Shown: piece after piece, positions 9,045 through 42,205 of the stretch
Layout: each line of letters begins with the position of its first letter
Numbering within the stretch: position 1 is the stretch's first letter
DNA from: a virus
Taxonomy: Duplodnaviria > Caudoviricetes
DNA length: 53,965 nucleotides
Strand: one strand, 5' to 3'
Virus record (IMG/VR): IMGVR_UViG_3300034093_000924
Location: 1 to 53,965 of that record
The notes under the pieces: generated by a model
The model's database searches: none
What the model saw: only the letters and a program-made list of their open reading frames with translations
Told to the model about the DNA's origin: nothing
Translations under genes and position numbers: made by a program

Positions 9045-9069
9045 AGCGTACTCCTGGTTAATTGTTCAA

Positions 9070-9098
9070 ATGGTATCATGTTGAGAGCGCCGAGACAA
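9070..9098 (-). promoter_or_regulatory. Candidate sigma70 promoter for the ejection-protein cluster
   Basis: Minus strand TTGTCT-17 nt-TACCAT with an extended TGn, ~25 nt upstream of the 9044 start. Confidence 0.4.
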
Positions 9099-12048: not shown

Positions 12049-12056
12049 TTTGATTC

Positions 12057-13036: not shown

Positions 13037-13039
13037 TTT

Positions 13040-13495: not shown

Positions 13496-13791
13496 TTTTC
13501 TTCCTTCTTTTGAGCTTCTTCAATCTGCTTTCGCAGTTTCTCGGTTTTTTCCATTTGGGCCTTGGCCTCTCGCCTTACCACCATCGTGTCCACATACATC
13601 ATCCCGACAAGGGGAAGCACCAACACAAAGACCAGTGCAAACAGGACTAAGACCAGAAGGTATCCAAACGACCCTGATGATTGAGACTGATTATCCACAT
13701 TAGGCCTATCAAGTAAGCGACTACGAAAACCACCGCTACCGTCTCCAGCACCCTGTCCAGAATCTGATTTTTTAACCTTTGTCGCCGCCAT
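13492..13791 (-). CDS. Small single-TM protein, possibly spanin-like; start uncertain (GTG at 13698 possible)
   Basis: Hydrophobic YLLVLVLFALVFVLVLPLV followed by a charged coiled coil; stop overlaps the next ATG. Confidence 0.5.
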   Translation of the reverse strand: MAATKVKKSDSGQGAGDGSGGFRSRLLDRPNVDNQSQSSGSFGYLLVLVLFALVFVLVLPLVGMMYVDTMVVRREAKAQMEKTEKLRKQIEEAQKKEEK

Positions 13792-14216
13792 GCTTTCACC
13801 CGCTTTTCGTGCAGTTCACGAGCCGCCTGCTCTGACTTTTGATCCAAGAGCCGCTGATACTCTTCTACGATGTCACGCCACATATCAGGCATTCCCATCT
13901 CCCAGCGCACCATTTTCTCTAAGTCAGCGTAAAACTGCTTGGTCTGCCGCAGATACATTACATTGTCTATGGCTTGTGTGGCAAGGTCGTCTTTGATCCC
14001 CTTTTTCTGATTGTCTTCCCGTTGAACTTCCGCTTTCTCGTGGCTGGCCTCGAGCTCGGCGTGCCCCTTGAAGAACTTTGACAGTGCGCCGCCCACTTCC
14101 GTGGTGATCTTGGACAGATCATTGCCTGTTTTCTTCAGGTCTTGGTAGACGGCAACGCACCCCTTTATGCCTTCATAGGCACCTTTGCAGAGAGCGAATG
14201 CCGTGATTGGATCAAT
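13647..14216 (-). CDS. Coiled-coil protein with C-terminal TM helix; probable ATT start
   Basis: The frame is open 40 codons upstream of the track start (14096) to ATT at 14216, with SD TAAGGGGT and an in-frame TAA two codons earlier. Confidence 0.6.
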   Translation of the reverse strand: MDPITAFALCKGAYEGIKGCVAVYQDLKKTGNDLSKITTEVGGALSKFFKGHAELEASHEKAEVQREDNQKKGIKDDLATQAIDNVMYLRQTKQFYADLEKMVRWEMGMPDMWRDIVEEYQRLLDQKSEQAARELHEKRVKAWRRQRLKNQILDRVLETVAVVFVVAYLIGLMWIISLNHQGRLDTFWS

Positions 14217-14226
14217 TTTTTACCCC

Positions 14227-14637
14227 TTAAGGGTGCAATGCCCGCAGTTGAGCAAGCGTTGTGCAGGCGTCAGTCAAAGTGGGTAGATCACGCAGGCGCT
14301 GTTTTTCCGCCACGATTGCAGTAGTGTCACTGCCAGCTTCCAACGCACGCTGGAAGGCTACATCCTGCGCTGTCAACAAAGGGGCACGTTCGGAACGCAA
14401 ACGGGTTTTTGTAAGCGCTTGGGCTTTAGTGAAGTTAATTGTCACTGCGCCATCAACTTGTTCCCATGCGTCAAAAAAATCATTATTGTCATAAGGAAGC
14501 GTTGATTGAGCAACAATAAAACTTGAAACACCAGTGGGTATATCTTTGGCCTGCACTTGTTCAATTGGCAATTCCCCCGTAGGGACGCAGACGGACACGC
14601 CGCCAAGATCATTGGTGTAAATAATTACATCAGACAT
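14227..14637 (-). CDS. Tail fibre assembly chaperone-like protein
   Basis: C-terminal RSERAPLL...QRLRDLP motif typical of tail assembly chaperones; follows the fibre genes; AAGGAG RBS. Confidence 0.7.
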   Translation of the reverse strand: MSDVIIYTNDLGGVSVCVPTGELPIEQVQAKDIPTGVSSFIVAQSTLPYDNNDFFDAWEQVDGAVTINFTKAQALTKTRLRSERAPLLTAQDVAFQRALEAGSDTTAIVAEKQRLRDLPTLTDACTTLAQLRALHP

Positions 14638-14677
14638 CTTGGACTCCTTATTTGTTGAGTGTTAAAGGAAATCATAT

Positions 14678-16774: not shown

Positions 16775-16793
16775 TTAATTTCCTTATTTGGGG

Positions 16794-18677
16794 TTATATA
16801 AAACACGACACATTAACAACTTCCATATCTAATGGAGAACCAGTGGTCATGTCGGAAGTAATAATAAGCAATGTAGCGCCCGTAGCACTGTAGTTTTCAG
16901 TAGTTACTCCAAAATTACGTTCGTTGGTAGAGTTTAATGTATAACACCCTCCTGTAACGGCACAAAAATTTGCGCTGCCCAAAGCGTTCGTAAAGTTTAG
17001 TGTGTAGTTCCCCGCGCTGTTACGTGTAACGCTAGTGACATTAAAACTGCCCCGCCTAGTACCAGTGTTACCGTTAAAGTTTACCCAAGCTTTTGAAGCG
17101 TTTGTAGCCGTGGTGGCCAAGGTGGCCAAGGTGGCCAAAGTTGCAAGGGTTGCCAAGGTCGCTAGGGTAGCCAAAGTGGCATTGGTAGCAGAAGACGCCG
17201 CGCCACTCAAAGTAGCAGTGATCGTGCCTGCGCTGAAGTTACCCGAGGCATCCCGTGCAACAACTTTGCTGGCAGTGTTGGTGGTAGTTGCATCCACTGC
17301 AAAGGTACGGGCGGTTGAGCCATTAAAAGTACCGCCGCTTGTAAGGTATGTCCCCGCCGTCAGAGCCGCTGCTGTAGCGTTTGCTGTGGTCGCCGTAGTA
17401 GCCAAAGTAGCCAGGGTTGCCAAAGTCGCTAGGGTAGCCAGAGTTGCGTTGGTGGCTGCGCCTGCGGTATAGCTGCCAATATTACCTGCGGAAATGGCAA
17501 TGTTGGGGCCAAAATAATAGTTTGCCCCGTCAAAATAAACGTAGTTGGCCCCGGAACTTGATAAATATATAACCCCGGTAGTGCCGCCACTGCGATACGC
17601 TGTAACGTCACCGTTTACAACTGTTAAACCCGTGCTTGCACCGGCGGTGTTGGGCGTAATGATCGCGGTTGTGGCTTTAATTTGCCCCGCAGTTGTTGAG
17701 GATGTGCCAACCCCCAGCGAGTTGACTTGATAATTGTTGGCTGTGTTAAGCGCATTGGCCGTTGTAGCAGTTGTAGCCAAAGTTGCAAGCGTAGCCGTAG
17801 TGGCCAAAGTTGCAAGCGTAGCCGTAGTAGCCAACGTAGCCGTAGTAGCCAGTGTGGCGTTGGTTGCCGAAGACGCCGCGCCGCTTAAGGTTGCGGTGAT
17901 TGTCCCCGCGCTGAAATTGCCTGAGGCATCCCGCGCTACAACCTTGCTGGCAGTGTTTAGGTTAGTTGCATCTACTGCAAACGTGCGAGCAGTTGACCCA
18001 TTAAAGGTGCCACCACTTGTAATATACGTCCCACCCGTTAGGGCTGCTGCTGTGGCGTTTGCTGTTGTTGCAGTTGTGGCTAATGTGGCTGTAGTAGCAA
18101 GGGTCGCCAGTGTGGCAAGAGTCGCCGTAGTGGCCAAGGTTGCATTGGTAGCTGAACCTGCTGCAATGCTGGACTGAGCCAACCAAGTGGGGGCTGCTGC
18201 GCCATTGCTTTGCAAAACCTGCCCGGAAGTGCCTGCTAAAGAATACGCATGGGCCGTACCCGTACCGTACCCAATACCACCGTTGGTGGCAGTAGCTGTA
18301 GAGTTTGTGCCGCCAGAAGCAATTGGTAACACTGCACTGTTGGTAGCCGTTAACGTGGTTCCGTCGGCATAAACCGCCCTTTCAGCCGGGTACGTAACAA
18401 ACACATCTTTGGTGCCCGCACTGAAATTGACAGCCGTGCCCCCATTACTTGACTCTAAAATTGTGTCCCTTGAGAGCAAAGTACCAGCAGCAGTGTATGT
18501 GCCAATCCCAACTTCCCACTCAGAACCGCTTTGACCTGCAATCGTGTAGTAGGTGGTGTTTGCGTTACCAATAACCGAGAAAGACTGGAACCCCGTGGCT
18601 GCGCCAGCAAGCGTGATAGTGCCGGTACCCGTGGTTGTGGTGGTTTCTTTAACCCTGTCTTTTAGTACTAAAGCCAT
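16794..18677 (-). CDS. Tail fibre protein 1 (627 aa)
   Basis: MALVLKDRVKET...WEVGIGTY N-terminus, duplicated VVARDASGNFSAGTITA module, ATL repeats, C-terminal KAWVNFNG domain. Confidence 0.8.
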   Translation of the reverse strand: MALVLKDRVKETTTTTGTGTITLAGAATGFQSFSVIGNANTTYYTIAGQSGSEWEVGIGTYTAAGTLLSRDTILESSNGGTAVNFSAGTKDVFVTYPAERAVYADGTTLTATNSAVLPIASGGTNSTATATNGGIGYGTGTAHAYSLAGTSGQVLQSNGAAAPTWLAQSSIAAGSATNATLATTATLATLATLATTATLATTATTANATAAALTGGTYITSGGTFNGSTARTFAVDATNLNTASKVVARDASGNFSAGTITATLSGAASSATNATLATTATLATTATLATLATTATLATLATTATTANALNTANNYQVNSLGVGTSSTTAGQIKATTAIITPNTAGASTGLTVVNGDVTAYRSGGTTGVIYLSSSGANYVYFDGANYYFGPNIAISAGNIGSYTAGAATNATLATLATLATLATLATTATTANATAAALTAGTYLTSGGTFNGSTARTFAVDATTTNTASKVVARDASGNFSAGTITATLSGAASSATNATLATLATLATLATLATLATLATTATNASKAWVNFNGNTGTRRGSFNVTSVTRNSAGNYTLNFTNALGSANFCAVTGGCYTLNSTNERNFGVTTENYSATGATLLIITSDMTTGSPLDMEVVNVSCFI

Positions 18678-18685
18678 ATGTGTCC

Positions 18686-20647
18686 TTAATCCGTTTCAAC
18701 CAGCACCCAGTCGGCGGTTTCTGCGTTGTTCACCAATGCCCACGACGCTGTTTCTGCGTTGTTCACCAATGCCCACGACGCTGTTTCTGCATTGTTCACC
18801 AATGCCCACGACGCTGTTTCTGCATTGTTCACATTTTGCCAGTTTGCGGTCTGGCTGTCATCAACCAATTTCCAATTTACCGCAACTATAGTCCCAACCC
18901 CTCCCGTGGCTTGCACGCCAGTCAAGGCAACGGTTCTGACCCCATTGCTTATTGTGCCTATTGCCCCCGCCGCAGATACCCCCGTTATAGCAACCAGCTT
19001 TGTAAACTCAACTGCCCCAACTGCCCCGGAAGCGGCGACACCTGTAACGGCAACCAGTTTTGCAAACTCAACTACCCCAACTGCACCGGAAGCTGAATTG
19101 CCTGTAAGGGCGAGTGATGTGGCTGGGGCTACTGCCCCCAATAACCCAGAAGCTGATACCCCCGTTATAGCAACCAGCTTTGCAAACTCAACTGCCCCAA
19201 CCGCGCCTGCTGCCGATACTCCAGTGAGGGCCACTGTCTGAACAACCCCTACATTACCTACAAATCCGTTGGCAACGTCCCCATCTTCACCCTCTGAGGT
19301 GCTGGGAGCCATTGTCTCAACCGCACCAGAAGCGGATACGCCTATGAGCGCAATTGATGTAGCGCCCCTAGACACTGTGCCAACCGCACCAGAAGCAAAA
19401 TTGCCTGTCAGAGCAACCGTTGTGCTGGGAGTTACTGTCCCCAACAAACCAGATGCAGACACCCCGGTAAGAGCCAGCGACCTCTCAGCAACCGTTACCG
19501 CTCCGACAGAACCCGATGCCGCCACACCTGTCAAAGCAAGAGCTGTCGCACCCCTGGAAACCGTGCCAACCGACCCTGTAGCCAATACCCCAGTAAGGGC
19601 AATCGTTGTGCTGGGAGCTACTGTCCCAAGCAGTCCTGATGCTGCATTGCCCGTCAAGGCAAGCGATGTAGCGCCTCTGGAAACCGTCCCAACTGCACCA
19701 GAAGCCGACACCCCGGTCAATGCAATCGTTGTGCTGGGTGCTGCGGTTCCGACAAAACCAAAGGCTACATCACCATCCTCACCTTCGGAACTACTGGGAG
19801 CAACTATGCCCACTGCACCTGAAGCCAAAACCCCGGTAAGGGCAAGTGATGTTGCACCCCTGGAAATTGTGCCAACTGACCCCGTAGCGGATACACCTGT
19901 AAGCGCGATTGATTGACTTGGGGTAACCGTACCAACAGAACCAGAAGCCGATACGCCCGTCAAAGCAAATGATCTTGCTCCAACAGCAACTGTCCCGGCA
20001 GAACCTGATGCTGATACGCCTGTAAGCGCAATTGTCGTACTGGAGGTTACTGTTCCAACAATACCTGTAGCCGATATGCCAGTGAGAGCGAGAGATGTGG
20101 CACCCCTGGAAACCGTGCCAACCGACCCTGTAGCCAATACCCCAGTAAGGGCAATCGTTGTGCTGGGAGCTACTGTACCGACCGACCCTGTAGCTGATAC
20201 CCCGGTGAGCGCAACTATAGTTGCTTGAGTTGCGGTAACTGTGCCAACAGAACCTGTGGCTGATACCCCCGTCAGAGCAATTGTTGTGCTGGGAGCTACT
20301 GTTCCAACTGCGCCAGAAGCAGCCACGCCTGTCAAAGCAACCGCATGACTAGGTGCTACCGTTCCAACTGCGCCAGAAGCAGTTGCGCCCGTAAGATCGA
20401 CGGAATGAGATGGCGTTGCTGTACCTACGCTACCTATCGCAGCATTGCCATCTTCTGCTGGGCTGTTTGTCTCTGTAACAGACCCAACACTACCTGTAGC
20501 CGATACCCCGGTTTTAGCAACCGATATGCTTGGCGTTGCTGTGCCTACCGCCCCGTTCGCGGCAACACCAGTTAAAGCAACCGTTACCGGCGATCCACCA
20601 GCAAGAGACGCAAACGGGACTTCGGCAAATGCGGCTATACCAAACAT
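18686..20647 (-). CDS. Repeat-rich virion structural/fibre protein (653 aa)
   Basis: More than 20 degenerate ~21-23-aa repeats (ALTGVSAxGxVGTV); MFGIAAFAEVPF N-terminus; Trp-containing C-terminal repeats. Confidence 0.75.
   Translation of the reverse strand: MFGIAAFAEVPFASLAGGSPVTVALTGVAANGAVGTATPSISVAKTGVSATGSVGSVTETNSPAEDGNAAIGSVGTATPSHSVDLTGATASGAVGTVAPSHAVALTGVAASGAVGTVAPSTTIALTGVSATGSVGTVTATQATIVALTGVSATGSVGTVAPSTTIALTGVLATGSVGTVSRGATSLALTGISATGIVGTVTSSTTIALTGVSASGSAGTVAVGARSFALTGVSASGSVGTVTPSQSIALTGVSATGSVGTISRGATSLALTGVLASGAVGIVAPSSSEGEDGDVAFGFVGTAAPSTTIALTGVSASGAVGTVSRGATSLALTGNAASGLLGTVAPSTTIALTGVLATGSVGTVSRGATALALTGVAASGSVGAVTVAERSLALTGVSASGLLGTVTPSTTVALTGNFASGAVGTVSRGATSIALIGVSASGAVETMAPSTSEGEDGDVANGFVGNVGVVQTVALTGVSAAGAVGAVEFAKLVAITGVSASGLLGAVAPATSLALTGNSASGAVGVVEFAKLVAVTGVAASGAVGAVEFTKLVAITGVSAAGAIGTISNGVRTVALTGVQATGGVGTIVAVNWKLVDDSQTANWQNVNNAETASWALVNNAETASWALVNNAETASWALVNNAETADWVLVETD
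18717..18832. repeat. 33-bp tandem repeat, ~3.5 copies, coding (WALVNNAETAS)
   Basis: gtttctgc(g/a)ttgttcaccaatgcccacgacgct repeated nearly identically. Confidence 0.9.
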
Positions 20648-20673
20648 GGCTTACGGCCTGCGCCGCCCCCGCA

Positions 20674-21165
20674 TTAAGTTGTGGCTAAGCGCAACAGAGC
20701 AGTCGAAGTCGTGTTGGAAGGCATCGTCAAGGTGAAAGTTCCCGCCGTGATTGTCTGTGAACCAAACGTGTGAACACTAACCGCCTTGTTGCTTTGAGTG
20801 GAGTTGTAGATCAACACTGCATCAAACGCCGTGGTCAAAGTCACTGTGGTATAGGTGATTGAAGCCGAAGGCGTAACAAAACCCACACCTGCCGTAGCAG
20901 AAGAGTTGGTTGACGTTGGCGTAGTTGTAGTTGTTACCGCAACACCGCCTGCCGTATAACCTGTACCAGACACTTCATTCGTAGCTGCGTAAGCCGTGGT
21001 AGAAGCATTAACAGTGGCTGACGTCAAATACAGTGCCGCTTTAAATGTATCCCCAGTTGGAGACGTCAAACTAGTGCGTGAAACAATAGTTGAAGCCCCA
21101 AACTGATGTTGGGCTGACATCAGTTCACCAAGGAACGATGTACACATTGATTGGGTGTTTGCCAT
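20674..21165 (-). CDS. Virion structural protein (paralogue of 21379..21801)
   Basis: FKAALY...NEVSGTGYTAGG...LIYN...FGS...TALLRL. Confidence 0.7.
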   Translation of the reverse strand: MANTQSMCTSFLGELMSAQHQFGASTIVSRTSLTSPTGDTFKAALYLTSATVNASTTAYAATNEVSGTGYTAGGVAVTTTTTPTSTNSSATAGVGFVTPSASITYTTVTLTTAFDAVLIYNSTQSNKAVSVHTFGSQTITAGTFTLTMPSNTTSTALLRLATT

Positions 21166-21174
21166 GATATTTCC

Positions 21175-21369
21175 TTATGTAAAAGAAGCGGTTTCGCCAC
21201 CAGCAAAAGTTGGCGGTTTTTTCAGAGTCACATGAGCAGAACGGTGAACCAATTCGCCTTCCAGCCAATACTCAACCCAAGAAGTTTGTTCGTTGTCATT
21301 ATCCACGGTTCCTTCCCGCTTTTCAAGCAGGGTGTCGTCCATGTCGCCTTTTGTCGTGGTTACTAGCAT
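21175..21369 (-). CDS. Hypothetical protein (64 aa)
   Basis: AAGGAG RBS; fills the gap between the two paralogues. Confidence 0.7.
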   Translation of the reverse strand: MLVTTTKGDMDDTLLEKREGTVDNDNEQTSWVEYWLEGELVHRSAHVTLKKPPTFAGGETASFT

Positions 21370-21378
21370 ATTTGCTCC

Positions 21379-21801
21379 TTAAACAAGTCGAATGAGTGCC
21401 GATGTGCTGGTGTTCGCAGGCATCGTCACGGGGAAAGTTGCGCTGGATGTTTTGTTAGACCCGAAGTCCAAGACGCACACAGCGCCGTTGGCCCCCGGAG
21501 TGTAAATCAACGCACCCCTGGCAGTGATTGCGCCCGTCCAAGACGGCGAAGAAAAGTTGATGAACACAATGCTTCCAGAAGAAGCAAGTTCGGTACCGAT
21601 GGTGGCTGTTACCACCAGACCGCCGGGGGCATAATTGCCGCCAGACGCCTCATCCGCCGAAGTGTATGCAGTGGTGTTCTGGTCAAGTGTGGCGGCATTG
21701 GTGTACAACGCCAAGTAAAACGTGTCCGACACAAAATTAATTGTGCCGTTCACCAGCCCTGACCGAAGTGTGTTGCAACTGTAGTTGCCCGTGAACGCCA
21801 T
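21379..21801 (-). CDS. Virion structural protein (paralogue of 20674..21165)
   Basis: FYLALY...DEASGGNYAPGG...LIY...DFGS...SALIRL. Confidence 0.7.
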   Translation of the reverse strand: MAFTGNYSCNTLRSGLVNGTINFVSDTFYLALYTNAATLDQNTTAYTSADEASGGNYAPGGLVVTATIGTELASSGSIVFINFSSPSWTGAITARGALIYTPGANGAVCVLDFGSNKTSSATFPVTMPANTSTSALIRLV

Positions 21802-22544
21802 CAGCGAACCCCACTATTCTGGGGCAGGGGCGATTGCCGATACTGCCCACTGCGGTACGCATCGCTACGCTCCAGCCCATCGCCCAGACGCTGTGCCAAT
21901 GCAAGCGCTTCCTTGTATTTGCCGTCATACAAAGCGATCAGGTCTTGCTCACCCTTCATGAAGGTGTACGCCTCAACCAAAGAACCATACAACAACACGC
22001 TGTCAAAGTTGTCACCAAGCCACGTTTGGCCAGAAGCCACTGTGGTGATGGATTCAGGGTAATAGTAGTAGTGCAACTCTACGTAGTATGTTGCATCCGG
22101 TGTAGGGCCAAGAATAAGAGACAACTCGTTTGTAATTGCCGAACTGACAATTGTTGGGCCAAACAAAGCGTAGTATTTTGGCTCTCCTGTGTCATTTGGA
22201 TTTGGGTATGCCTGACGGATGAAGTTCACATCTTTGTTGAGTAAATACTCATACGTGCCCGTATCTAAATTAGCGCCCGTAACACCTGTCACCAACGCCA
22301 AAGAATAAACAGACAAGAAGTCGTCGGGCAAAGACACGTACTTGTTGTTTATGGTGATTGGGGTGGATTGATTCTTACGCAGCGAGGGGAACTGCACCGA
22401 GTTGTATATACGTTGTTCAGCCTGCGTGATGCAAGTATTAATCTGTGTCGTTGCAGACACAGTACCCCCACTTGCAAGGTACACATCGGGAAACTGATTC
22501 TCGGTGTAGCTCTGAATTGTGTTGTACAACTCGGTGTAGTTCAT
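21801..22544 (-). CDS. Head-tail adaptor-like protein (P22 gp4 / T7 gp11 class)
   Basis: MNYTEL...AEQRI...LPDDF...PTPD...LLYGSLVEAY adaptor pattern; synteny. Confidence 0.65.
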   Translation of the reverse strand: MNYTELYNTIQSYTENQFPDVYLASGGTVSATTQINTCITQAEQRIYNSVQFPSLRKNQSTPITINNKYVSLPDDFLSVYSLALVTGVTGANLDTGTYEYLLNKDVNFIRQAYPNPNDTGEPKYYALFGPTIVSSAITNELSLILGPTPDATYYVELHYYYYPESITTVASGQTWLGDNFDSVLLYGSLVEAYTFMKGEQDLIALYDGKYKEALALAQRLGDGLERSDAYRSGQYRQSPLPQNSGVR

Positions 22545-22741
22545 GCCATCGGGCCTCTGGCCATCTTGCCTTTGGTCTGCGCTTTACCGCCGCGCACCAC
22601 GATACCCGAAGTTTTCATGGGTGGGTAGTCTTGGCTGCGTGTGTTGGCCACAGACACGTTTGCTTTGCGCATCGTCTCTTTGGCTGGCTCTTCGCCAACA
22701 ATTACGTTGGCTACTTTGGTTGGTTGCGTGTAGGTTGCCAT
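22541..22741 (-). CDS. Small basic protein (66 aa)
   Basis: GGAGG RBS before ATG 22741; C-terminal VRGGKAQTKGK motif. Confidence 0.65.
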   Translation of the reverse strand: MATYTQPTKVANVIVGEEPAKETMRKANVSVANTRSQDYPPMKTSGIVVRGGKAQTKGKMARGPMA

Positions 22742-22742
22742 A

Positions 22743-22934
22743 TCAGCCTCCACGACCAGGACTGCGCTGGTTCATGACCTTGGCCATGTTGCGCCCGTAT
22801 TTGAGCATATCGCCGTTGGTCTTGCCGCCAGCCTTAAGCTTGGTCATGGGCTTGCCAGGGTGCAGCTTTTTCTCATGCTTATGCACCGCGCCTGCGATCA
22901 TCTTCTTGTCTTGTGCCAAGTCTTTCTTGTCCAT
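22743..22934 (-). CDS. Small basic protein (63 aa)
   Basis: AAGGAG RBS; HKHEKKLHPG...LKAGG. Confidence 0.7.
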   Translation of the reverse strand: MDKKDLAQDKKMIAGAVHKHEKKLHPGKPMTKLKAGGKTNGDMLKYGRNMAKVMNQRSPGRGG

Positions 22935-22944
22935 CTTCGACTCC

Positions 22945-23373
22945 TTATGTCGTTACTACCGTAACTGTACCCAATTGCACGCCCAAAACCAAGTTATTTG
23001 GTGTTAAAGCGGCATCAAAAAATACTGAGCCCCCAACAGGAGTCCAGCCCCACTGAAAAATCCTGCTGCCCCCGCTGAGAATCCCTTGGGCGTCAGCCGC
23101 CGAACTGTTGGTCAGCTCAATTTGCAGACCTGTGCGACCAGACACTTTGTAGCTGATGTCGGGCCTTGGGTCTCGTATCCCCTGCGGGTCATCCACCGGG
23201 TACATACCCAGTTGCAACTGTGGCTGATCTGGGTCCCAGCACTGGGGGCACACCTTGAGATCATATACCTTGGTCTTGACAACTTCTTTGCGCAGCGTGG
23301 TCAACTTGAAGCGAAACCCGCAACGGTCACACTCCGCAATTGAGTTCTTGCCAGACGCAAACCTGTTACCCAT
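22945..23373 (-). CDS. Zinc-ribbon protein (142 aa)
   Basis: CDRC...CPQC followed by PQ...DPRPD. Confidence 0.7.
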   Translation of the reverse strand: MGNRFASGKNSIAECDRCGFRFKLTTLRKEVVKTKVYDLKVCPQCWDPDQPQLQLGMYPVDDPQGIRDPRPDISYKVSGRTGLQIELTNSSAADAQGILSGGSRIFQWGWTPVGGSVFFDAALTPNNLVLGVQLGTVTVVTT

Positions 23374-24311
23374 TACGTACCCCCAATGAACATCTGCCTG
23401 GGCACAAGCCGCAGGGACGCACGTTCTTGGTCTTCATCCGCAGCCGACATCCAGGCTTCGTCATACTGTTGTTTGAGCACGCCCAGGCGCTCCATGCCAC
23501 CAGGAATCTTGAGCGCAATGTAGTAGGCCAGTCCTGCTGCCATACATGGGATAAAGCGGAAGGGAACATCCATGACGTTCACGCCACCGCCAGCATCTTG
23601 CACCCGGCGCATGCGCCAGTAGACAAACTGGTAGGTCTGGGAGCCATCAGGTGTGGGCCACACAGTGACACGGGGGGTGTTGTTGACGCGGACGGGGTCG
23701 CTTGCAACGGGTGTCTGTTGGGTCGTGCCGTTTTGCGCACGAAACACGTTACTCAGGGTATTTCCTGAAATGTAGTTGTAAAACACAGTCTCTGTGCCAC
23801 CTGTGGCCACGATGTCCACGTACCCAATTGCGGGAAGCCCAACAACCGAACTCAACGTGATCGTTGCCGCAGTGAGGTCTTGGGACACAAACGTCGAAGC
23901 GGTGGTGGCCACCTGCCCGTCCAGGCGCTGATACCAGACCTGGATAGGCCGGGCTTGATTGAGCTTGTTGGGGATGGTTGCGTAGGTGGACACGCTGATG
24001 CGCGTGATGGTCAAGTCCGCTTGGTTGGACAGGATGTTGGCATTGGTGCGGATCACATGGTCAAGCAGATCAACGGTGTCCGTTGGAACGGCGTAGGTGT
24101 TCAGTCCTTGTGTCAGGGTAATCGTCCCCTGCTCAAACGTCCACATGTTGACGCCACGGTTGGCCCAGTCAGCAAACAGTAAGTTAAGGGACCGACGCGC
24201 TGTTCGCAGGTCATACCCCGTGCGCATTTCTGAACCCGCACGCTCGAACGCTTCCTCGACCAGCTCAGTGAGGTCAAGGTTAAAGCCTGATTGTCCAGAG
24301 GTAACTGCCAT
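23373..24311 (-). CDS. Second adaptor/tail tubular protein A-like (312 aa)
   Basis: EEAFERAG...ARRSLNLLFADWANRG...WPTPD...GLAYY adaptor-type architecture. Confidence 0.65.
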   Translation of the reverse strand: MAVTSGQSGFNLDLTELVEEAFERAGSEMRTGYDLRTARRSLNLLFADWANRGVNMWTFEQGTITLTQGLNTYAVPTDTVDLLDHVIRTNANILSNQADLTITRISVSTYATIPNKLNQARPIQVWYQRLDGQVATTASTFVSQDLTAATITLSSVVGLPAIGYVDIVATGGTETVFYNYISGNTLSNVFRAQNGTTQQTPVASDPVRVNNTPRVTVWPTPDGSQTYQFVYWRMRRVQDAGGGVNVMDVPFRFIPCMAAGLAYYIALKIPGGMERLGVLKQQYDEAWMSAADEDQERASLRLVPRQMFIGGT

Positions 24312-24313
24312 GA

Positions 24314-25492
24314 TTAAAAGCCCCCACGCCGTCCTTGCAACATCGACGCCAAGCCTTGCAGACCCATTTGACCGCCGTATCCACCACCGCCCATGCGTCC
24401 GCCGTAGCCGCCCCCACCACCGTAACCGCCACGACCCCCGCCGTATCCGCCACGACCACCGCCGTATCCGCCACGACCGCCAAAATCAGGCATGCCCATC
24501 CTGTTGTCTATACGGGGGCCGGGAAGCTGCCGTCGCATAAAGTCACCAATACCGATTTCTGAAGCCACCTGCTCTGAGCCGGGTTGCTGTGGCATTACAG
24601 CCGCCCGCATGTCCCCAAATGTTCCTGGTGGTGGTGGCATATCCACAGTCATACCGCGTCTAGCATCCTCTTGGGTAGCCTGCTGCCACGCGGACTGTAG
24701 CCGTGTTTGGTCTTGCATGTTCCGTTGTTGCTGCATCTGGTCAATGTTGCCGTATGGGTTTCCCATTTGTCCCATTTGTCCCATTTGTCCCATTTGTCCC
24801 ATTTGTCCCATTTGTCCCATTTGTCCTTGCTGGGGTTGGGCCATCCCCCGCATCTTGCCCTGCAAGTCTTGCATTTGCTGGAACATAGGGGCTTTTTGCA
24901 TGTACTCGTTCATCTGCCGCCCAAGGTCTTGCTCCTGCTTCTGGTACGCCTGGAAGTCAGGGTTGTCCATGTACGCAGGGCGCTGGCCCATTGGTTGCGG
25001 CATTTGCATTGGCGTTGGTTGGAAGGGCCCGTTTGGGTTTTGCAACTGTTGCTGCCCTTGCGGCTGACCAAAATTGTTTTTGTATGCCTCATAGCCTTTT
25101 TGGTCTTCTTGCAACTGTTGCTCACGAGAACGAAACTGCTGATCTTGCATACGTGGCGTCGCACGATACTGCTCAAAAGATTGGAGTTGATTGGGCTGTT
25201 GCTGCTGCTGAAATTGATTCATCCCATAGCCGGGACTTTGGTTAGGCCCCAGTTGCTGCCCACCAAACGGGTTCTGCATCTGCTGCATACCATACGGCTG
25301 TTGTTGCTGCATGCCAAATGGGCTTCCCCCTTGAAAGCCGCCCGCAGATGCGTTGCCCATGCCCCCACCAAAGTTGTTCATGTACGGCTGCGCGTAAGAG
25401 GGGACGCCCCCACCCGGCTGCGCCGATGCGTTGCCCATGGGTTGTTGCCCCATGCCGCCTGAACCGCCTGCACTTCCTGCTCCGCCTGCCAT
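24314..25492 (-). CDS. Low-complexity Gln/Gly/Met/Pro-rich protein with RGG repeats (392 aa)
   Basis: Start overlaps the upstream stop (TAATG) and the stop is 2 nt before the next ATG, so it fits the gene packing; contains (QMG)7 and GGRGGY repeats. Confidence 0.75.
   Translation of the reverse strand: MAGGAGSAGGSGGMGQQPMGNASAQPGGGVPSYAQPYMNNFGGGMGNASAGGFQGGSPFGMQQQQPYGMQQMQNPFGGQQLGPNQSPGYGMNQFQQQQQPNQLQSFEQYRATPRMQDQQFRSREQQLQEDQKGYEAYKNNFGQPQGQQQLQNPNGPFQPTPMQMPQPMGQRPAYMDNPDFQAYQKQEQDLGRQMNEYMQKAPMFQQMQDLQGKMRGMAQPQQGQMGQMGQMGQMGQMGQMGQMGNPYGNIDQMQQQRNMQDQTRLQSAWQQATQEDARRGMTVDMPPPPGTFGDMRAAVMPQQPGSEQVASEIGIGDFMRRQLPGPRIDNRMGMPDFGGRGGYGGGRGGYGGGRGGYGGGGGYGGRMGGGGYGGQMGLQGLASMLQGRRGGF
24762..24824. 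repeat. 9-bp perfect tandem repeat (cccatttgt)x7, coding QMG
   Basis: Directly visible in the sequence. Confidence 0.95.
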
Positions 25493-25725
25493 TATCGGTA
25501 CCCCGCTGTTTTCTTTGCGATGCTTTTGGGTTGCGCCACAAACTGTTTACCTGCCGCCTTACCTGCCCGTTTGGCTTTGGTGGTTGCTGCGTACTCAGAA
25601 GGACTGAGCGCCTTGATTGCCGCTTCTGGCAAGTACCGCTCACCCGTTTTTGACGAAGGCTTCCCCGACTTGGTGCGCCATTTCTGGTCACCCCAGTTTT
25701 TAAGGGAAGTCTGCGGTGCTTTCAC
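25492..25725 (-). CDS. Small basic protein resembling the C-terminal half of DUF5872-like proteins
   Basis: SLKNWGDQKWRTKSG...ERYLP...EYAATTKAKR...GKQF. Confidence 0.7.
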   Translation of the reverse strand: MKAPQTSLKNWGDQKWRTKSGKPSSKTGERYLPEAAIKALSPSEYAATTKAKRAGKAAGKQFVAQPKSIAKKTAGYR

Positions 25726-26027
25726 TTCATCACACCCCGCGTCTTACCGCGTTGCGCTATTCCGTCTGCACGTTTGGAAGCGGAGACCGTGCCGCCTTTT
25801 TTCATGCCACGAGTTTCGCGTTGCAATTCGGAAGCATACTCTTTAGCTTTAGCGTCAGGCAGTGTAAACCCCATAGTGTTGGTTTTGCCGTTCTTTGTTC
25901 GGTAGATATAACTATCCCCTGTTTTAACGCCAAAATTGTCGTCAACTGTCCCTTGACTATCCGCCCCGCCAAGCGATTCGGGCTCTGTGCTAAACCTAGC
26001 TTTACTGGATTTTTTCTTTTCAGTCAC
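25722..26027 (-). CDS. Small basic protein (101 aa, GTG start)
   Basis: GGAGGAGG RBS before GTG 26027; MKKGG and RADGIAQRGKTRG motifs. Confidence 0.65.
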   Translation of the reverse strand: MTEKKKSSKARFSTEPESLGGADSQGTVDDNFGVKTGDSYIYRTKNGKTNTMGFTLPDAKAKEYASELQRETRGMKKGGTVSASKRADGIAQRGKTRGVMK

Positions 26028-26295
26028 GATAACCTCCTCCAGCCGCCTTGTATTTCTTGGCGACAAGTTGTGCTTTACGGGCTGACCATTGGCCTGCACC
26101 CGTTCCGTGGGTTGCGGCTGCCTTCACCTGGGACACGATTTTCTTGCGAAGACCGGGCTTGGTGTAATTGCCAGCAGCATTGACTTTTCCACCTTCTTTG
26201 TACTCAGTGAAATCGGTGTCATCCCGGCGCTTTTTGCGCTTGGCTCCGGGCATTTTGGAGGGGTTGATGTCCCCCATCCCACGGCTGGCCATCAT
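26020..26295 (-). CDS. Small basic protein resembling the N-terminal half of DUF5872-like proteins
   Basis: YTKPGLRKKI...GQWSARKAQLVAKKYKAAGGGY. Confidence 0.7.
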   Translation of the reverse strand: MMASRGMGDINPSKMPGAKRKKRRDDTDFTEYKEGGKVNAAGNYTKPGLRKKIVSQVKAAATHGTGAGQWSARKAQLVAKKYKAAGGGYRD

Positions 26296-26296
26296 C

Positions 26297-26662
26297 TCAG
26301 CACTTGCCGCCGCGCTTCATGCCCAGGGGCGTGGAACCAGCCATCTTAATCATCGTGCCCTTGGTTTTACCCTTGGAAGCGATACCGTCACGGCTGGGAG
26401 CACCAGTCTTGACGCTACCCATTTTGGCGCTGGTCATGCCACCAGAAGCCATCTTCTTTGTGCCCATTGCTTTTTTCTTAGCAATCATTTCCATGAAAGG
26501 GTTTGCTTTAGCCATATCACCACCTCTTTTAAAAGACTTGCCTTTGTCGGCGTTGCTGAAATCTTTGCCCACAGACTGTGGGACCCCTACCTTCTTGGCA
26601 AACGATGGGTTGTTGGCCACCGCAGCCATGAAATTGTGCTGTTTTTTACTTGTTGACGGCAT
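26297..26662 (-). CDS. Small basic protein (121 aa)
   Basis: MPSTSKKQHNFMAAVA...; FKRGG, MASGG and MKRGG motifs; DGIASKGKTKG. Confidence 0.7.
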   Translation of the reverse strand: MPSTSKKQHNFMAAVANNPSFAKKVGVPQSVGKDFSNADKGKSFKRGGDMAKANPFMEMIAKKKAMGTKKMASGGMTSAKMGSVKTGAPSRDGIASKGKTKGTMIKMAGSTPLGMKRGGKC

Positions 26663-26858
26663 CGTCGGCCTTCTTGTTCCAGGGAAGCAAGTCAGAAAAC
26701 GATCTACCCGTGACCATTTCCGTAATCCGCATGGAAGTCCACACGATGGTCAAGACACCGCCGACCAGAGCAACAACAGGCGTGACAACCCCGAGGAAGC
26801 CCCCAAGGCCCATTACAACTGCCGCGCCGTCAACCATAGCCTTTGTGTCGTGGTTCAT
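26646..26858 (-). CDS. Small membrane protein (70 aa)
   Basis: Long hydrophobic stretch AAVVMGLGGFLGVVTPVVALVGGVLTIVW. Confidence 0.6.
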   Translation of the reverse strand: MNHDTKAMVDGAAVVMGLGGFLGVVTPVVALVGGVLTIVWTSMRITEMVTGRSFSDLLPWNKKADDAVNK

Positions 26859-26859
26859 G

Positions 26860-27114
26860 TCAGCACTTCCAAGCCCGCAGGCTCTTGTTAATCCGACTGT
26901 TTGGGTCTTTGGCTGTCTTCTCGGACGTGAGCTTTTTCTTCATCCCAGTCATCCTTGCACAGAAAGAGTCGCGCCTGCTGCCGCCCTCGGGCTGCGGTGC
27001 TTTCAACCCCGGCTTGCCGGGATTGGCTTTGTTGTAGGAAGCCCGACCCTTGGCGTTCAAGCCGCCCTTCTCGGATTTGCCTTCCTTGCGTTGCCATGCA
27101 GGTGACTTAGCCAT
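26860..27114 (-). CDS. Small basic protein, DUF6321-like (84 aa)
   Basis: GGLNAKGRASYN...RRDSFCARM...SRINKSLRAWKC; ATG 27114. Confidence 0.7.
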   Translation of the reverse strand: MAKSPAWQRKEGKSEKGGLNAKGRASYNKANPGKPGLKAPQPEGGSRRDSFCARMTGMKKKLTSEKTAKDPNSRINKSLRAWKC

Positions 27115-27622
27115 AGTAAATCTGCGACGCGTCAATACCGCTCATGTAGGAATAAATTCCATTTATTGCTAGTACGCCTTCGCCGGGAATAAGCGGAGCA
27201 TTTTGAAACTCGTCTGTTGCGTGGGTTTCATAGGTTAACAACCAACGATTTGCGCCACTGACATAAACCGCTGCTGGAGAACCTGTAATATTCCCAGTAT
27301 TGATGTCTACAAGCGTAAACGAATCCGCGTTGACTCTAGTAATAGAATAATTTCCATCAGTAGCAGCGCCACCTGAGCCACCCGCAAAATGTATACCTAC
27401 AACATCTCCAGTAGACAATCCGTGCGCCGTCTTAGCCACCGTCACGGTCGTGCCAGTGCGTCCATAAGTAACGCTTGAAGTTACTGGGGCTGTGGTTGAA
27501 TCAAACAATACAAGAGTGCCACTACCACCATAAAAAGAAACGCCTTTTACACGGTTGCGTCCAAGAACAAAAAAACCGCTTTGGTTTAAATGACCTTGTT
27601 TTACGTCAGTTTGCATCGTCAT
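27107..27622 (-). CDS. Virion-module beta-rich protein (171 aa)
   Basis: AAGGAG RBS; internal TAHGLSTGD beta insert. Confidence 0.7.
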   Translation of the reverse strand: MTMQTDVKQGHLNQSGFFVLGRNRVKGVSFYGGSGTLVLFDSTTAPVTSSVTYGRTGTTVTVAKTAHGLSTGDVVGIHFAGGSGGAATDGNYSITRVNADSFTLVDINTGNITGSPAAVYVSGANRWLLTYETHATDEFQNAPLIPGEGVLAINGIYSYMSGIDASQIYYG

Positions 27623-27640
27623 AATCAAACTCCTTTTTTA

Positions 27641-27660
27641 ACAGGGGCCGAAGCCCCGTT
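27641..27660 (-). other. Intergenic stable hairpin GGGGC-UUCG-GCCCC
   Basis: C(UUCG)G tetraloop on the minus strand just before the SD of 27622; no U-tract on that strand. Confidence 0.55.
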
Positions 27661-27667
27661 GGGTTGA

Positions 27668-28210
27668 TTAAGAGTTGGCAAACGGCGTGGCAACCGTACC
27701 CGTACCAAGCACCGTGCCTTCAACCATGTACTTGTTAGCTGCAATTGCAAAAATCCGCACCCATGAACCTGCAACACCACCAGTGGTCGTGCCATTCAAG
27801 TTGATGAAGTCGTTAGCGGCAGCGGCAAAGAAACCAACCAATGCAGCGCCGTCTGAGTCAACGTCGTTCATGGTAATTGAGCCAACGTATTTGTCAGTAC
27901 CGTTTGTACCAATCTTCAACGAGCTGGTGGCAATCGTTGTGGGAACCCAGATGGTGTACAAAACACCTTCGTTGTTAACTGTGCTGGGGTCTTGGCCAGG
28001 GCCAGAAGTGGTGGGGTTTGCCGTCATGTTGATAGCGGGCAATGTCAGCGTCAGTGCAGCAGCCAATGTGCCGCCAACAGAGATGATGCGACCGCCATGA
28101 GCTTCGGGGCTTAATGTGGTGCTAGAAGTGATTTCAACGACAGCCGCTGGGCCTTGTTGGTAAATGCCGCCCAAAGAACGAATTGGGCCTTGAAACGTAG
28201 TGCGTGCCAT
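27668..28210 (-). CDS. Virion structural protein (180 aa), possible head fibre/decoration
   Basis: MARTTFQGPIRS N-terminus, TLTLPA, INLNGTTTGG; first gene after the major capsid gene. Confidence 0.7.
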   Translation of the reverse strand: MARTTFQGPIRSLGGIYQQGPAAVVEITSSTTLSPEAHGGRIISVGGTLAAALTLTLPAINMTANPTTSGPGQDPSTVNNEGVLYTIWVPTTIATSSLKIGTNGTDKYVGSITMNDVDSDGAALVGFFAAAANDFINLNGTTTGGVAGSWVRIFAIAANKYMVEGTVLGTGTVATPFANS

Positions 28211-28220
28211 GATAATTTCC

Positions 28221-28293
28221 TTACATGCAAGTGGGGCGTATCTGTCTGCATGTCGTCAGCCGGGACTGTCAGATACACCGGAAAGCCCGGAAT
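28221..28293 (-). ncRNA. Candidate structured (pseudoknotted) 5' leader RNA
   Basis: Three interleaved helices: CCGGG/CCCGG, GGUGUAUCUG/CAGAUACGCC and ACAUGCAG/UUGCAUGU, the last abutting the SD. Confidence 0.5.
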
Positions 28294-28299
28294 AGTTGC

Positions 28300-28328
28300 A
28301 ATATACACTAAAAGAAAAAGGGGCACAA
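28300..28328 (-). promoter_or_regulatory. Candidate sigma70 promoter overlapping the capsid terminator
   Basis: Minus strand TTGTGC-17 nt-TATATT. Confidence 0.4.
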
Positions 28329-28340
28329 GGCCCCTTTTTC
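28310..28340 (-). terminator. Intrinsic terminator after the major capsid gene
   Basis: Minus strand GAAAAAGGGGC-CTTGT-GCCCCTTTTTCTTTT, ~10 nt after the stop; potentially bidirectional. Confidence 0.8.
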
Positions 28341-28349
28341 ATAGACACA

Positions 28350-29279
28350 TTAAGCGCCTGCGGAACCCCACATACCGAGGGGATCAGACCAGCCGAAGCT
28401 GTAACGCTCACGAGCCTTGTAACGGACGTTGCCCGTATCAAAGTCGCCGTCCATCGAGTTTGCCAGGGGCATACGCTCGAAATGCTTCATGCCGTTGGGA
28501 ACGTCGGTAATCAAATACCAGCCATTCGAATCGGTCAAGAAGTGGTTGACACAGTAGCCTTCAGGAATCGCACCCATCTGCTTGATAGCGTTGATGTCGT
28601 TATCAGCAGTAGAGACACGCAGTTCAGTGTCAAGCAAGCGCTTGGCAACGAACATCAGCGCTGGGGGGATGACCATCTTGCGGGGCTTGGCAGCGATCAA
28701 CAGACCACGCTCATCGGTCCATGCAGCGATTTGAATCACGGCATTTTCCAAGGAGGTTTCGTTCAAGTCCACGCCAGTGGTGGGGCTGTTGAAGTTAACC
28801 GCGCCATTCACCAAGGGGTGGCCAACACGAGTGCTGGAGCTGTTGTTACCAAACAAGGTCACGCCGTCACCACCCAGGTAAGAACCGTTGAACCCGTTAT
28901 TGATAACGGAGGCGGCTTTAACCTGCTTGGTGTAGGACATCGCACGAGCCAGGGCTTTGGTGTAACGAGCAGACAGTGAGTCGTACAAGTTATCTTCCAC
29001 AGCTTCCTCGGTGATCGAGAAGCCCAGGGCGATGGTCTCGTGGTTGTAACGGGCGGTAAACGCTTCCTGCGCATTGTCGTAGGAGATAGCGGAACCCTCG
29101 TTCTTGACGGGAGCAGCACCGAAACCAGCAAGCTTGGTCTCTTCTTCGAAGCTACGCTCTGATTTCTCAGTTTCGTAGATTTCTTTGTGCTCTTCGCCGT
29201 AACGAGCGTATTCCAAACCGAACAAAGCGTTCAGACCAGGGAGCAACTCTTTAAGTAGTTGTGCGCGTGAAATTGCCAT
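28350..29279 (-). CDS. Major capsid protein (309 aa)
   Basis: MAISRAQLLKELLPGLNALFG...DGVTLF...HPL...RYKARERYSFGWSDP; strong TAAGGAG RBS; follows scaffold; terminator downstream. Confidence 0.88.
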   Translation of the reverse strand: MAISRAQLLKELLPGLNALFGLEYARYGEEHKEIYETEKSERSFEEETKLAGFGAAPVKNEGSAISYDNAQEAFTARYNHETIALGFSITEEAVEDNLYDSLSARYTKALARAMSYTKQVKAASVINNGFNGSYLGGDGVTLFGNNSSSTRVGHPLVNGAVNFNSPTTGVDLNETSLENAVIQIAAWTDERGLLIAAKPRKMVIPPALMFVAKRLLDTELRVSTADNDINAIKQMGAIPEGYCVNHFLTDSNGWYLITDVPNGMKHFERMPLANSMDGDFDTGNVRYKARERYSFGWSDPLGMWGSAGA

Positions 29280-29292
29280 TTTGAGTTACTCC

Positions 29293-29919
29293 TTACAGAC
29301 CAACTGCGTTGGTAAATGAGTGATAGCCGGGATTGATTTTGACCAGAATATCGGTGTAGGCGTCGCCCACAGTCGAGAAACCAACCATATCAACAAACCC
29401 AACAACACGGAATGCTGCGGTGGTGGTCACAGCCGAGGCACCTGCTACGACGGAAGCCGTAGAGTTACCAGTGGATGTGCTGCCAGTTGCCACAGCGCTA
29501 GTTGTGAAGAACACGTTTGCGCCCACGGCAGCTTGCGTGACAGAGCCAGCAGACTGAACTTGGAACACAACACCGGGGTCATCCACAACGTAGGCGTTAA
29601 CCACACCCGTGGTACCCGTGGGGTAGTACTGAGCGTAGATCACTTGGCCTTGTGCGTTGATGTAAGAACAGCCAACAAACACACCTACGATGCCCGTGTT
29701 AGCGGTGCCAGTAGGAAAGCCGTTGGTGGTCGCATCAGCGCCAGTTGCGGTGGCCACAGCCAGATAGCCAGACGCATTCACGTACACGGGCGAACCGTTG
29801 TAAATGCTTGAGGCAGTGCCTGCGGGGTCGATGAGATACGAACGGGTTGCACCTGCGTATGGTGTGCCACCCAGCTCATTCACGGGTTTTAGCCCGTATG
29901 GGGATGCTACTGATGCCAT
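29293..29919 (-). CDS. Capsid decoration/auxiliary head protein (208 aa)
   Basis: PYGLKPV...GIVGVFVGC...VVDDPGVVFQVQ; immediately upstream of the capsid gene. Confidence 0.65.
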   Translation of the reverse strand: MASVASPYGLKPVNELGGTPYAGATRSYLIDPAGTASSIYNGSPVYVNASGYLAVATATGADATTNGFPTGTANTGIVGVFVGCSYINAQGQVIYAQYYPTGTTGVVNAYVVDDPGVVFQVQSAGSVTQAAVGANVFFTTSAVATGSTSTGNSTASVVAGASAVTTTAAFRVVGFVDMVGFSTVGDAYTDILVKINPGYHSFTNAVGL

Positions 29920-38162: not shown

Positions 38163-38187
38163 AAACGGGGACAAACTGTCCCTGTTT
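38163..38187. repeat. Palindromic element copy 2 (GGGACA-AAC-TGTCCC)
   Basis: AAACGGGGACAAACTGTCCCTGTTT. Confidence 0.85.
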
Positions 38188-39318: not shown

Positions 39319-39342
39319 AACGGGGACAAGCTGTCCCTGTTT
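39318..39342. repeat. Palindromic element copy 3 (GGGACA-AGC-TGTCCC)
   Basis: AAACGGGGACAAGCTGTCCCTGTTT. Confidence 0.85.
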
Positions 39343-42183: not shown

Positions 42184-42205
42184 ACGGGGACAACCTGTCC
42201 CTGTT
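42182..42205. repeat. Palindromic element copy 4 (GGGACA-ACC-TGTCCC)
   Basis: AAACGGGGACAACCTGTCCCTGTT. Confidence 0.85.

Follow-up and report, generated by a model that had tools for sequence, protein, structure and literature searches.

A putative double-pseudoknot leader RNA before a probable capsid decoration gene in freshwater and marine phages

Introduction

The leader of T4 gene 32 is an autogenous operator in which a single H-type pseudoknot is followed by an unstructured A/U-rich spacer that extends to the ribosome site. S15 exerts autogenous control on E. coli rpsO through a pseudoknot operator, and ompA-type leaders carry 5'-terminal stem-loops that stabilise the mRNA, these being simple hairpins with little sequence constraint. 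Here we analyse a leader on the minus strand of a tailed-phage record (Duplodnaviria; Caudoviricetes), IMG/VR record IMGVR_UViG_3300034093_000924. All 53,965 bases of this viral record were analysed and are referred to as the window. The leader, at 28211-28293, precedes the first gene after the capsid gene. It is predicted to combine a 10-bp central helix with two pseudoknots, one involving the predicted transcript start and the other ending at the Shine-Dalgarno (SD) sequence.

Like the T4 gene 32 leader, this element would place a pseudoknot at the 5' end of a phage leader and act in cis on its own gene. The 5'-terminal H-type arrangement of gene 32 is found here in A:A', which pairs the predicted first nucleotides with the loop of an internal hairpin, D. 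The element differs from gene 32 in having two interlocked pseudoknots on a 10-bp helix and in a fold that ends 0-3 nt from the SD. Its downstream protein also differs, as it has no match to any family of ssDNA-binding proteins and resembles a capsid spike rather than a protein that binds single-stranded DNA. With rpsO it shares a pseudoknot beside an accessible SD, an arrangement that could keep either the 30S subunit or a repressor in place where translation starts, but there is no sequence or fold homology. As in ompA-type leaders, the first transcript nucleotides would be paired, leaving few free 5' nucleotides (strand A is predicted to begin at about +1 to +4). In contrast to those leaders, the fold here comprises five helices in 76 nt and has near-invariant junction letters.

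A further parallel is with exoribonuclease-resistant RNAs (xrRNAs). According to one report, these form a three-way junction in which the 5' end pairs with a junction strand and the 3' flank is bound by a hairpin loop, and the flavivirus xrRNA fold is also said to halt the bacterial RNase J1 (PMC5760640). The phage leader resembles that description (PMC5760640) in having a central helix around a junction, a 5' end that pairs within the core and a further pseudoknot formed with the 3' flank. However, the partners are reversed, with the 5' tail pairing to a hairpin loop and a junction strand pairing to the 3' flank. There is also one internal hairpin instead of two, and the element is located at an mRNA 5' end instead of in a 3' untranslated region. 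No Rfam xrRNA model matches the leader.

A 2023 screen of IMG/VR intergenic regions listed 8,495 unnamed 'DNAVirus_N' candidates, of which 879 lie no more than 25 nt from a gene with known domains (PMC10690425). As in the present work, the source was IMG/VR and the targets were intergenic RNAs that show covariation and lie up to 25 nt from a start codon; the main text of that paper has no motif before decoration or cement genes, and its pipeline reports no pseudoknots (PMC10690425). The motif described here may be among the unnamed DNAVirus_N candidates. A full-text literature search, with most subscription journals outside its coverage, returned no description of the motif. When positions 27000-29500 of the window were searched with Rfam 15 at E up to 10, there were four weak matches, all far below gathering and none on 28211-28308, and the corresponding leaders of phages DSL-LC04, HTVC023P and HTVC027P gave no match. 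A first-pass annotation of this DNA had made the novelty of the leader conditional on such a search, and no Rfam 15 family lies on it. Covarying RNAs with five helices and two pseudoknots are rare and are usually ribozymes, riboswitches or nuclease-resistant elements.

Predicted fold of the leader

The first-pass annotation had proposed a chained double pseudoknot made of three helices, A, B and C, in the leader of the first post-capsid gene. The helices, the AAGGA, the ATG and the promoter hexamers that it listed were all located on the minus strand, and compensatory changes in relatives indicate that the double pseudoknot is real and conserved. The elements of the refined fold, all on the minus strand, are as follows.

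28286-28290, minus: A, 5' strand of pseudoknot 1, CCGGG; partner 28264-28260
28278-28281, minus: A2, CCGG, possible local hairpin with A; its GG doubles as the start of B
28270-28279, minus: B, 5' strand of the 10-bp central helix, GGUGUAUCUG
28266-28268, minus: D, 5' strand of a 3-bp hairpin, CAG
28260-28265, minus: D hexaloop, UCCCGG, containing A' (CCCGG, 28264-28260)
28257-28259, minus: D, 3' strand, CUG
28254-28256, minus: junction strand ACG
28248-28253, minus: C, 5' strand of pseudoknot 2, ACAUGC; partner 28228-28223
28245-28247, minus: junction strand AGA
28235-28244, minus: B', 3' strand of the central helix, CAGAUACGCC
28229-28231, minus: E, 5' strand of a 3-bp hairpin, CUU; its 3' strand is AAG
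28223-28228, minus: E hexaloop, which is C', GCAUGU

Helices A and B stand as first annotated. Helix C had been drawn with 8-nt strands, ACAUGCAG (28253-28246) and UUGCAUGU (28230-28223), but it has six pairs rather than eight, and hairpins D and E had been missed. The seventh pair of the longer C helix, A-U, forms in only 74 of 149 sequences. Its U instead pairs with the A that follows C' and precedes GGA (U-A in 85, C-G in 46 and U-G in 5 of 140 sequences). Since this U pairs across C', helix C:C' is limited to 6 bp and C' becomes the hexaloop of the 3-bp hairpin E. The three (U/A)GAC words that had been pointed out earlier coincide with the three junction strands and are conserved.

Folding the single sequence gave a minimum free energy of -22.8 kcal/mol with z = +1.16, and 178 of 200 shuffles folded as well or better; the centroid shows helix B only. 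About half of the proposed pairs are pseudoknotted and therefore invisible to this method, so that the nested-only energy fold is uninformative. Nearest-neighbour energies were -13.1 kcal/mol for B alone, -8.2 kcal/mol for the A:A' duplex, -6.3 kcal/mol for the C:C' duplex and -19.3 kcal/mol for the best nested fold.

The competing hairpin CCGG-GCUUU-CCGG, formed by A and A2, had also been suggested. It can form, with 97% of cells paired, but there are no double changes in it. This candidate is confined to the sequence type of the window and is absent in the other types; in one distant relative (L054) A, A2 and A' are altered together. The hairpin bears on whether the leader could be a riboswitch, in which binding of an ion or small molecule at the three-way junction would alter access to the SD. 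A complex pseudoknotted fold with conserved junction nucleotides beside an SD is typical of translational riboswitches, and the leader has such a fold, conserved junction letters close to the SD and, in the window's type, the alternative pairing of A with A2. However, no alternative structure is conserved in the four sequence types described below, there is no case in which a conserved anti-SD clearly masks the SD, the Rfam riboswitch models give no match, and the gene that would be regulated is a late structural gene of variable sequence. We therefore regard the riboswitch-like role suggested in the first-pass annotation as unlikely.

Compensatory changes in related leaders

Relatives of the locus were gathered through the flanking proteins, for which 597 of 600 candidate stretches were confirmed with the capsid protein and 513 of 541 with the product of the next gene; the best 80 of each were kept. 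A degenerate DNA pattern contributed at least 120 further stretches. The refined model was scored on a MAFFT alignment (A1) of 150 distinct leaders. With all five helices, 96.6% of cells were paired compared to 88.2% after shuffling, a value that none of 500 shuffles reached, and controls with partners slid by 1-3 columns had 28-46% paired cells. Double-sided changes were observed at 15 of the 27 pairs, with at least one in each of the five helices. The three helices originally annotated also withstood this comparison (94.8% paired against 87.2% shuffled, 0/500; 13 of 23 pairs double-changed).

The changes are spread over the fold. In helix B, 8 of 10 pairs are changed on both sides, and of 2,252 cells in this helix 198 hold G-U pairs, which fit the minus strand only. 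A:A' retains at least 4 bp in 149 of 150 sequences, and its variants include CCGGA/UCCGG, CCCGGA/UCCGGG, CUCGG/CCGAG, CUGGGA/UCCCAG and CCAGGA/UCCUGG. The middle pair of D takes all four Watson-Crick forms (A-U 117, U-A 18, G-C 14, C-G 1) with 100% of cells paired, and the inner pair of E changes from U-A to C-G in 46 sequences. C:C' changes from G-C to A-U in 39 sequences and from A-U to U-A in 4. Many of the sequences are close kin, so these cell counts overstate the number of independent events, and the four sequence types are the stronger argument. Two further tool-made alignments shift the register of A (alignments A2 and A3) and of C' (A3); pair counts across types were made by script instead.

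Small open reading frames (ORFs) across the leader, at 28111-28326 and 28256-28441, were rejected as coding because the linkers and loops differ in length by amounts that are not multiples of three. An apparent link between the middle pair of D and the letter after C (A or C) was also discarded, being broken by two loci (L190 and L193).

Occurrence in other phages

A covariance model, R1, was built from the nested helices. In the window it has a sole copy at 28293-28218 (98.7 bits, E 1e-19), the next best match scoring 9.8 bits. R1 also matched phage DSL-LC04 (17.5 bits), between the genes annotated 'major capsid protein' and 'cement protein', and Pelagibacter phage HTVC023P at the same genomic position (35.5 bits). 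HTVC027P gave a partial match of 8.8 bits, and every element is present on reading by eye. The model misses most HTVC027P-type leaders (29 matches from 59 sources), and their structure is taken from a structural descriptor and reading by eye. These phages define four sequence types, which differ in both pseudoknots as follows.

Window type: A:A' CCGGG/CCCGG; C:C' ACAUGC/GCAUGU
DSL-LC04: A:A' CUAGG/CCUAG; C:C' UAGUAG/CUACUA
HTVC023P: A:A' CCUAG/CUAGG; C:C' GUAUAG/CUAUAC
HTVC027P: A:A' ACUGUA/UACAGU; C:C' CCUAG/CUAGG

Protein relatives of HTVC023P and DSL-LC04 were added before all leaders were parsed with the descriptor. The full architecture was present in 227 of 251 unique leaders and in none of 502 shuffles. 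In the 227 parsed leaders A:A' occurs in 21 combinations and C:C' in 13, and the 5' strand of B takes 60 distinct sequences. Complementarity of at least 5 bp was found for 99.6% of A:A' and 100% of C:C' strands with their own partners, compared to 9.3% and 5.7% when partners were swapped between types. Leaders fetched by protein alone parsed in 102 of 114 unique cases (53/54, 34/36 and 15/24).

Despite the differing helix sequences, the junction strands (A; ACG or ACU; AGA) are kept across lineages. In the 102 protein-anchored parsed leaders, AGA is intact in 99 and the third letter of ACG is G in 92. The letters A and AC are required by the descriptor, and their conservation is judged from the MAFFT alignments and reading by eye. 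Hairpin E, with three pairs, occurs in at least 152 of 176 leaders of the window type and in 7 of 10 of the DSL-LC04 type, and is absent in the two pelagiphage types.

Exactly one R1 match, on the gene strand, was found in 59 of the 80 capsid-anchored loci. The other 21 consist of five that end less than 260 nt past the capsid gene, five that parse with new helix sequences, four that are variants by eye and seven with a different next ORF. Unrelated ORFs are inserted just past the capsid terminator, ahead of where the leader is expected, at L033, L036, L040, L043, L071, L076 and L079; the N-termini of several such ORFs recall, we presume, homing endonucleases.

The motif is absent from seven DSL-LC04-like relatives and from Planktothrix phage Pag-Yong1, where other structured leaders are found instead. 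The seven relatives of the DSL-LC04 cement gene (L376, L382, L393, L424, L426, L430 and L433) have a shorter leader, about 60 nt before the start codon and devoid of helices B and C. Its single hairpin, CAGGUGC-AAUCCC-GCGCCUG, has 7 bp and lies between CUGA and ACCC. The post-capsid leader of Pag-Yong1 (L281 4904-5007) is GC-rich and unrelated, and in it the loop of a 9-bp hairpin is able to pair with GGAGACGG at the SD. This appears to be a comparable pseudoknot next to the SD that arose independently.

A second R1 match in DSL-LC04 (OR003939.1 29915-29983; L446 1501-1569, minus; 21 bits) was set aside as probably due to chance, since it lies within coding sequence at a helicase/DNA polymerase I junction and has four non-standard pairs and a deletion in B. 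A scan of prokaryote genomes returned 50 exact pattern matches, against about 35 expected by chance as estimated from the pattern and library size, and nine of them carry the motif. These nine contigs (L486, L458, L466, L464, L474, L450, L487, L452 and L473; 3.6-60 kb, 64-101 bits) sit in metagenome bins whose labels name unrelated phyla (Nanopelagicales, Armatimonadetes, Chloroflexota, Nitrosomonadales and others) and are probably phage contigs swept into those bins. No isolate genome in the scan has the motif, which thus gives no clue to a host. Altogether the motif is present in hundreds of freshwater and marine viral contigs, and a pelagiphage group that carries it is described in one paper as the most abundant known (PMC12753301). 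The four metatranscriptome runs examined consist of assembled contigs. Among these, contigs of relatives from RNA libraries span the leader and the start of the gene (for example records 18, 19 and 31), although such contigs cannot show start, strand or level, and a lower coverage in the promoter and terminator bins was given no weight.

Promoter and translation start

The features that surround the fold are listed below. On the minus strand they run from the capsid gene through a terminator, a promoter-like pair of hexamers, the leader and AAGGA to a gene of 180 codons.

28350-29279, minus: major capsid protein gene, 309 amino acids (PHROG phrog_371 major head protein, E 4.3e-17; Pfam Phage_capsid_4, E 3.4e-11)
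28314-28340, minus: intrinsic terminator of the capsid gene, an 11-pair stem and a U run
28323-28328, minus: -35-like hexamer TTGTGC, in the terminator loop and 3' arm, 17 nt from TATATT
28300-28305, minus: -10 hexamer TATATT
28211-28293, minus: predicted mRNA 5' leader, 83 nt; +1 placed at A28293, the 7th nucleotide past the -10, from promoter spacing
28218-28222, minus: SD sequence AAGGA; letters 1-3 are the 3' strand of E
27668-28210, minus: downstream gene, 180 amino acids, for a probable capsid decoration (cement/capsid-spike-like) protein; ATG at 28210-28208

Of the 227 parsed leaders, 211 have a -10-like hexamer 4-11 nt ahead of helix A (TATATT 108, TATAAA 52, TATAAT 16), and in 197 of these 211 the distance is 6-9 nt. 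By the usual rule for spacing between a -10 element and the start, the first nucleotide of A would fall between about +1 and +4. The -35 position in relatives reads TTGCAC, TTGACA, TTGCAA or TTCACA. In the window, DSL-LC04 (L282 4915-4945) and HTVC023P (L283 2378-2425), the -35-like hexamer is located inside the capsid terminator hairpin. The predicted overlap of terminator and promoter is conserved among these three.

The position of the promoter bears on two further readings. The first is a self-cleaving ribozyme, a possibility raised in the first-pass annotation, which would process read-through transcripts from the capsid gene. Double pseudoknots with conserved junction letters are common in small ribozymes, and the CUGACGA of the leader resembles the CUGANGA box of the hammerhead. 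The hammerhead core consists of CUGANGA, stem II and GAAA, with three stems around the cleavage site; in the leader CUGACGA is present, but a conserved GAAA after the C' helix was not found. In addition, no family matches even at E up to 10, a strong terminator precedes the motif, and the conserved promoter sets the predicted start at the motif's own 5' edge. These observations leave a ribozyme very unlikely.

The second is a cis-acting RNA through which RNA polymerase would be modified, making antitermination along the long late operon processive. The put RNAs of phage HK022 consist of two tandem stem-loops past the promoter and cause read-through of downstream terminators. The leader is likewise located directly past a promoter and heads a run of minus-strand genes of about 20 kb, but its fold is unlike two tandem stem-loops, and its tight, conserved spacing to the SD would go unexplained. 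There is also no strong minus-strand terminator in 8300-28250, where terminator-like sites are at chance level (24 compared to 24.0 expected). The capsid terminator at 28314-28340 is the strongest such site on the minus strand within 8300-48000 (~40 kb). A put-like function is very unlikely.

The end of C' is 7-15 nt, mostly 11-12 nt, from the ATG. C' abuts the SD in HTVC023P, the SD start is the 3' strand of E in the window type, the SD lies 3 nt later in DSL-LC04, and the two overlap in HTVC027P. Pseudoknot 2 is thus always 0-3 nt from the SD or overlaps it, which fits the translational control proposed in the first-pass annotation, while nothing points to the ligand sensing that was proposed with it.

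The downstream protein

In 81 loci with both the capsid gene and the downstream gene, the spacer between the two is 137-270 nt in 66; in the other 15 it contains additional ORFs and measures 785-2062 nt. The leader adjoins the second gene whether or not ORFs are inserted after the capsid gene. When unique 92-nt leaders were fetched through the second protein, the element was present in all 79 (77 with the core expression, 2 variants). The motif is linked exclusively to one gene family.

The downstream ORFs, of which 223 are complete, encode 50-236 amino acids, and 104 match the protein of the window at E ≤1e-5. Nearly all of these proteins share an N-terminal arm of about 16 residues, MAxTTFxGPVxSxNGF or related. 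Arm variants are MAxTTFxGPVxSxNGF, MGFATHLGPWLLGT or MAVSTTQSIWRSGGG, for example at loci L162, L166, L196, L211 and L219. A common arm with a divergent remainder suggests cassette-like exchange of an exposed domain.

The downstream protein of the window has no usable sequence match in PHROGs, Pfam or PDB, and a tblastn search of phage records gave matches in HTVC023P and HTVC027P only. An AlphaFold model (predicted local distance difference test, pLDDT, 75; predicted template-modelling score, pTM, 0.74) had 9ny6_C, a capsid spike from Pseudomonas phage Pa223, as its best Foldseek match (E 6.1e-5; query template-modelling score, TMq, 0.42), which is modest evidence. In DSL-LC04 the gene that occupies this position carries the label 'cement protein'; the DSL-LC04 paper gives HHpred as the annotation method, and its main text is silent on the cement gene. 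Based on the spike-like model, the gene position and this label, the protein is probably a capsid decoration protein with a conserved anchoring arm and a swappable outer domain. The motif may thus help to annotate unlabelled capsid decoration genes and their promoters.

The shared arm raises the possibility of a translational operator, in which the N-terminal arm of the decoration protein, or free capsid protein, would freeze the fold beside the SD and shut off synthesis autogenously when in excess, in the manner of T4 gene 32 and of S15 on rpsO. This possibility draws on the strict co-occurrence of the motif with one gene family, the 16-residue arm common to the downstream proteins, the unpaired junction letters that are near-invariant across types, and a fold that the SD abuts and, in one type, overlaps. 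However, the downstream proteins are otherwise unrelated and range from 50 to 236 amino acids, so that a common ligand could only be the arm or another protein, and PHROG and Pfam searches of the downstream protein gave no RNA-binding domain. We consider an operator possible and put it forward tentatively. If the leader does bind a protein or ligand, it would reveal a way in which phages keep the supply of decoration protein in step with that of the capsid.

Proposed function

We propose that the leader acts in cis as a constitutive shield against 5'-end-dependent decay and as a presenter of the SD, a reading to which we assign a probability of about 0.5. The mRNA would start at a sigma-70-type promoter nested in the capsid terminator, and its first ~76 nt would fold into a compact body with B at the centre. 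Hairpin D would sit in the loop of B, its hexaloop pairing the transcript start, and strand C, in the same loop, would pair the six nucleotides just 5' of the SD, which in the window lineage form the hexaloop of E. Three conserved G-A-C junction strands would link three stacks. Two of these, each of 9 bp (D with A:A' and E with C:C'), must fold back along B, since short linkers tie their far ends to its base, and a closed three-helix body would result. With about 3 or fewer free nucleotides, the 5' end would be locked in a helix and shielded from 5'-end-dependent decay, and a rigid fold ending right at the ribosome site would keep the SD exposed and well placed. Shielding and presentation together would give a high, steady output of a protein needed in stoichiometry with the capsid.

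A generic role of this kind, rather than a specific sensor, is favoured by the finding that no alternative pairing is conserved across the four types, and also by the relatives that have replaced the motif with other structured leaders. Several points weigh against the shield-and-presenter proposal. The transcription start, the fold and the effect on expression are all predicted, and the -35 hexamer TTGTGC is weak (3/6 to consensus) and was unlisted by a promoter scan. In the HTVC027P type C' overlaps the SD (CUAGGAG), an arrangement that looks closer to repression than to presentation. Protection of an end would need no more than a plain 5' hairpin, and the elaborate fold with its near-invariant unpaired letters (A; ACG; AGA) hints at a specific partner or pocket. 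As for the virion-assembly RNA that had also been suggested, nothing in the analysis points there.

The same architecture could also serve as a 'cap-and-dock' module. Here the 5' knot, a phage equivalent of the xrRNAs, would be a mechanical obstacle to 5'-end sensors and 5'-3' nucleases (RppH, RNase E and RNase J). The rigid body, stacked on the helix between SD and anti-SD, would bind the 30S platform and so draw ribosomes to this message before those of the host in late infection. This extension is doubtful; if true, it would be the first natural structured, ribosome-recruiting and nuclease-proof 5' element described in phages. If the leader, as proposed above, boosts stability or translation without other factors, it would be a compact and portable expression element. 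The pelagiphage paper reports an infection transcriptome of HTVC027P (PMC12753301); with a cultured phage-host pair and existing RNA-seq data, the leader is directly testable.

Repeated hairpins upstream of the capsid gene

Three near-identical minus-strand hairpins, GGGACAG-N-TTGTCCC followed by CGTTT, were observed at 42187-42201, 39323-39337 and 38168-38182. They are located in the upstream, probably early, region and could be repeated regulatory or terminator-like sites.

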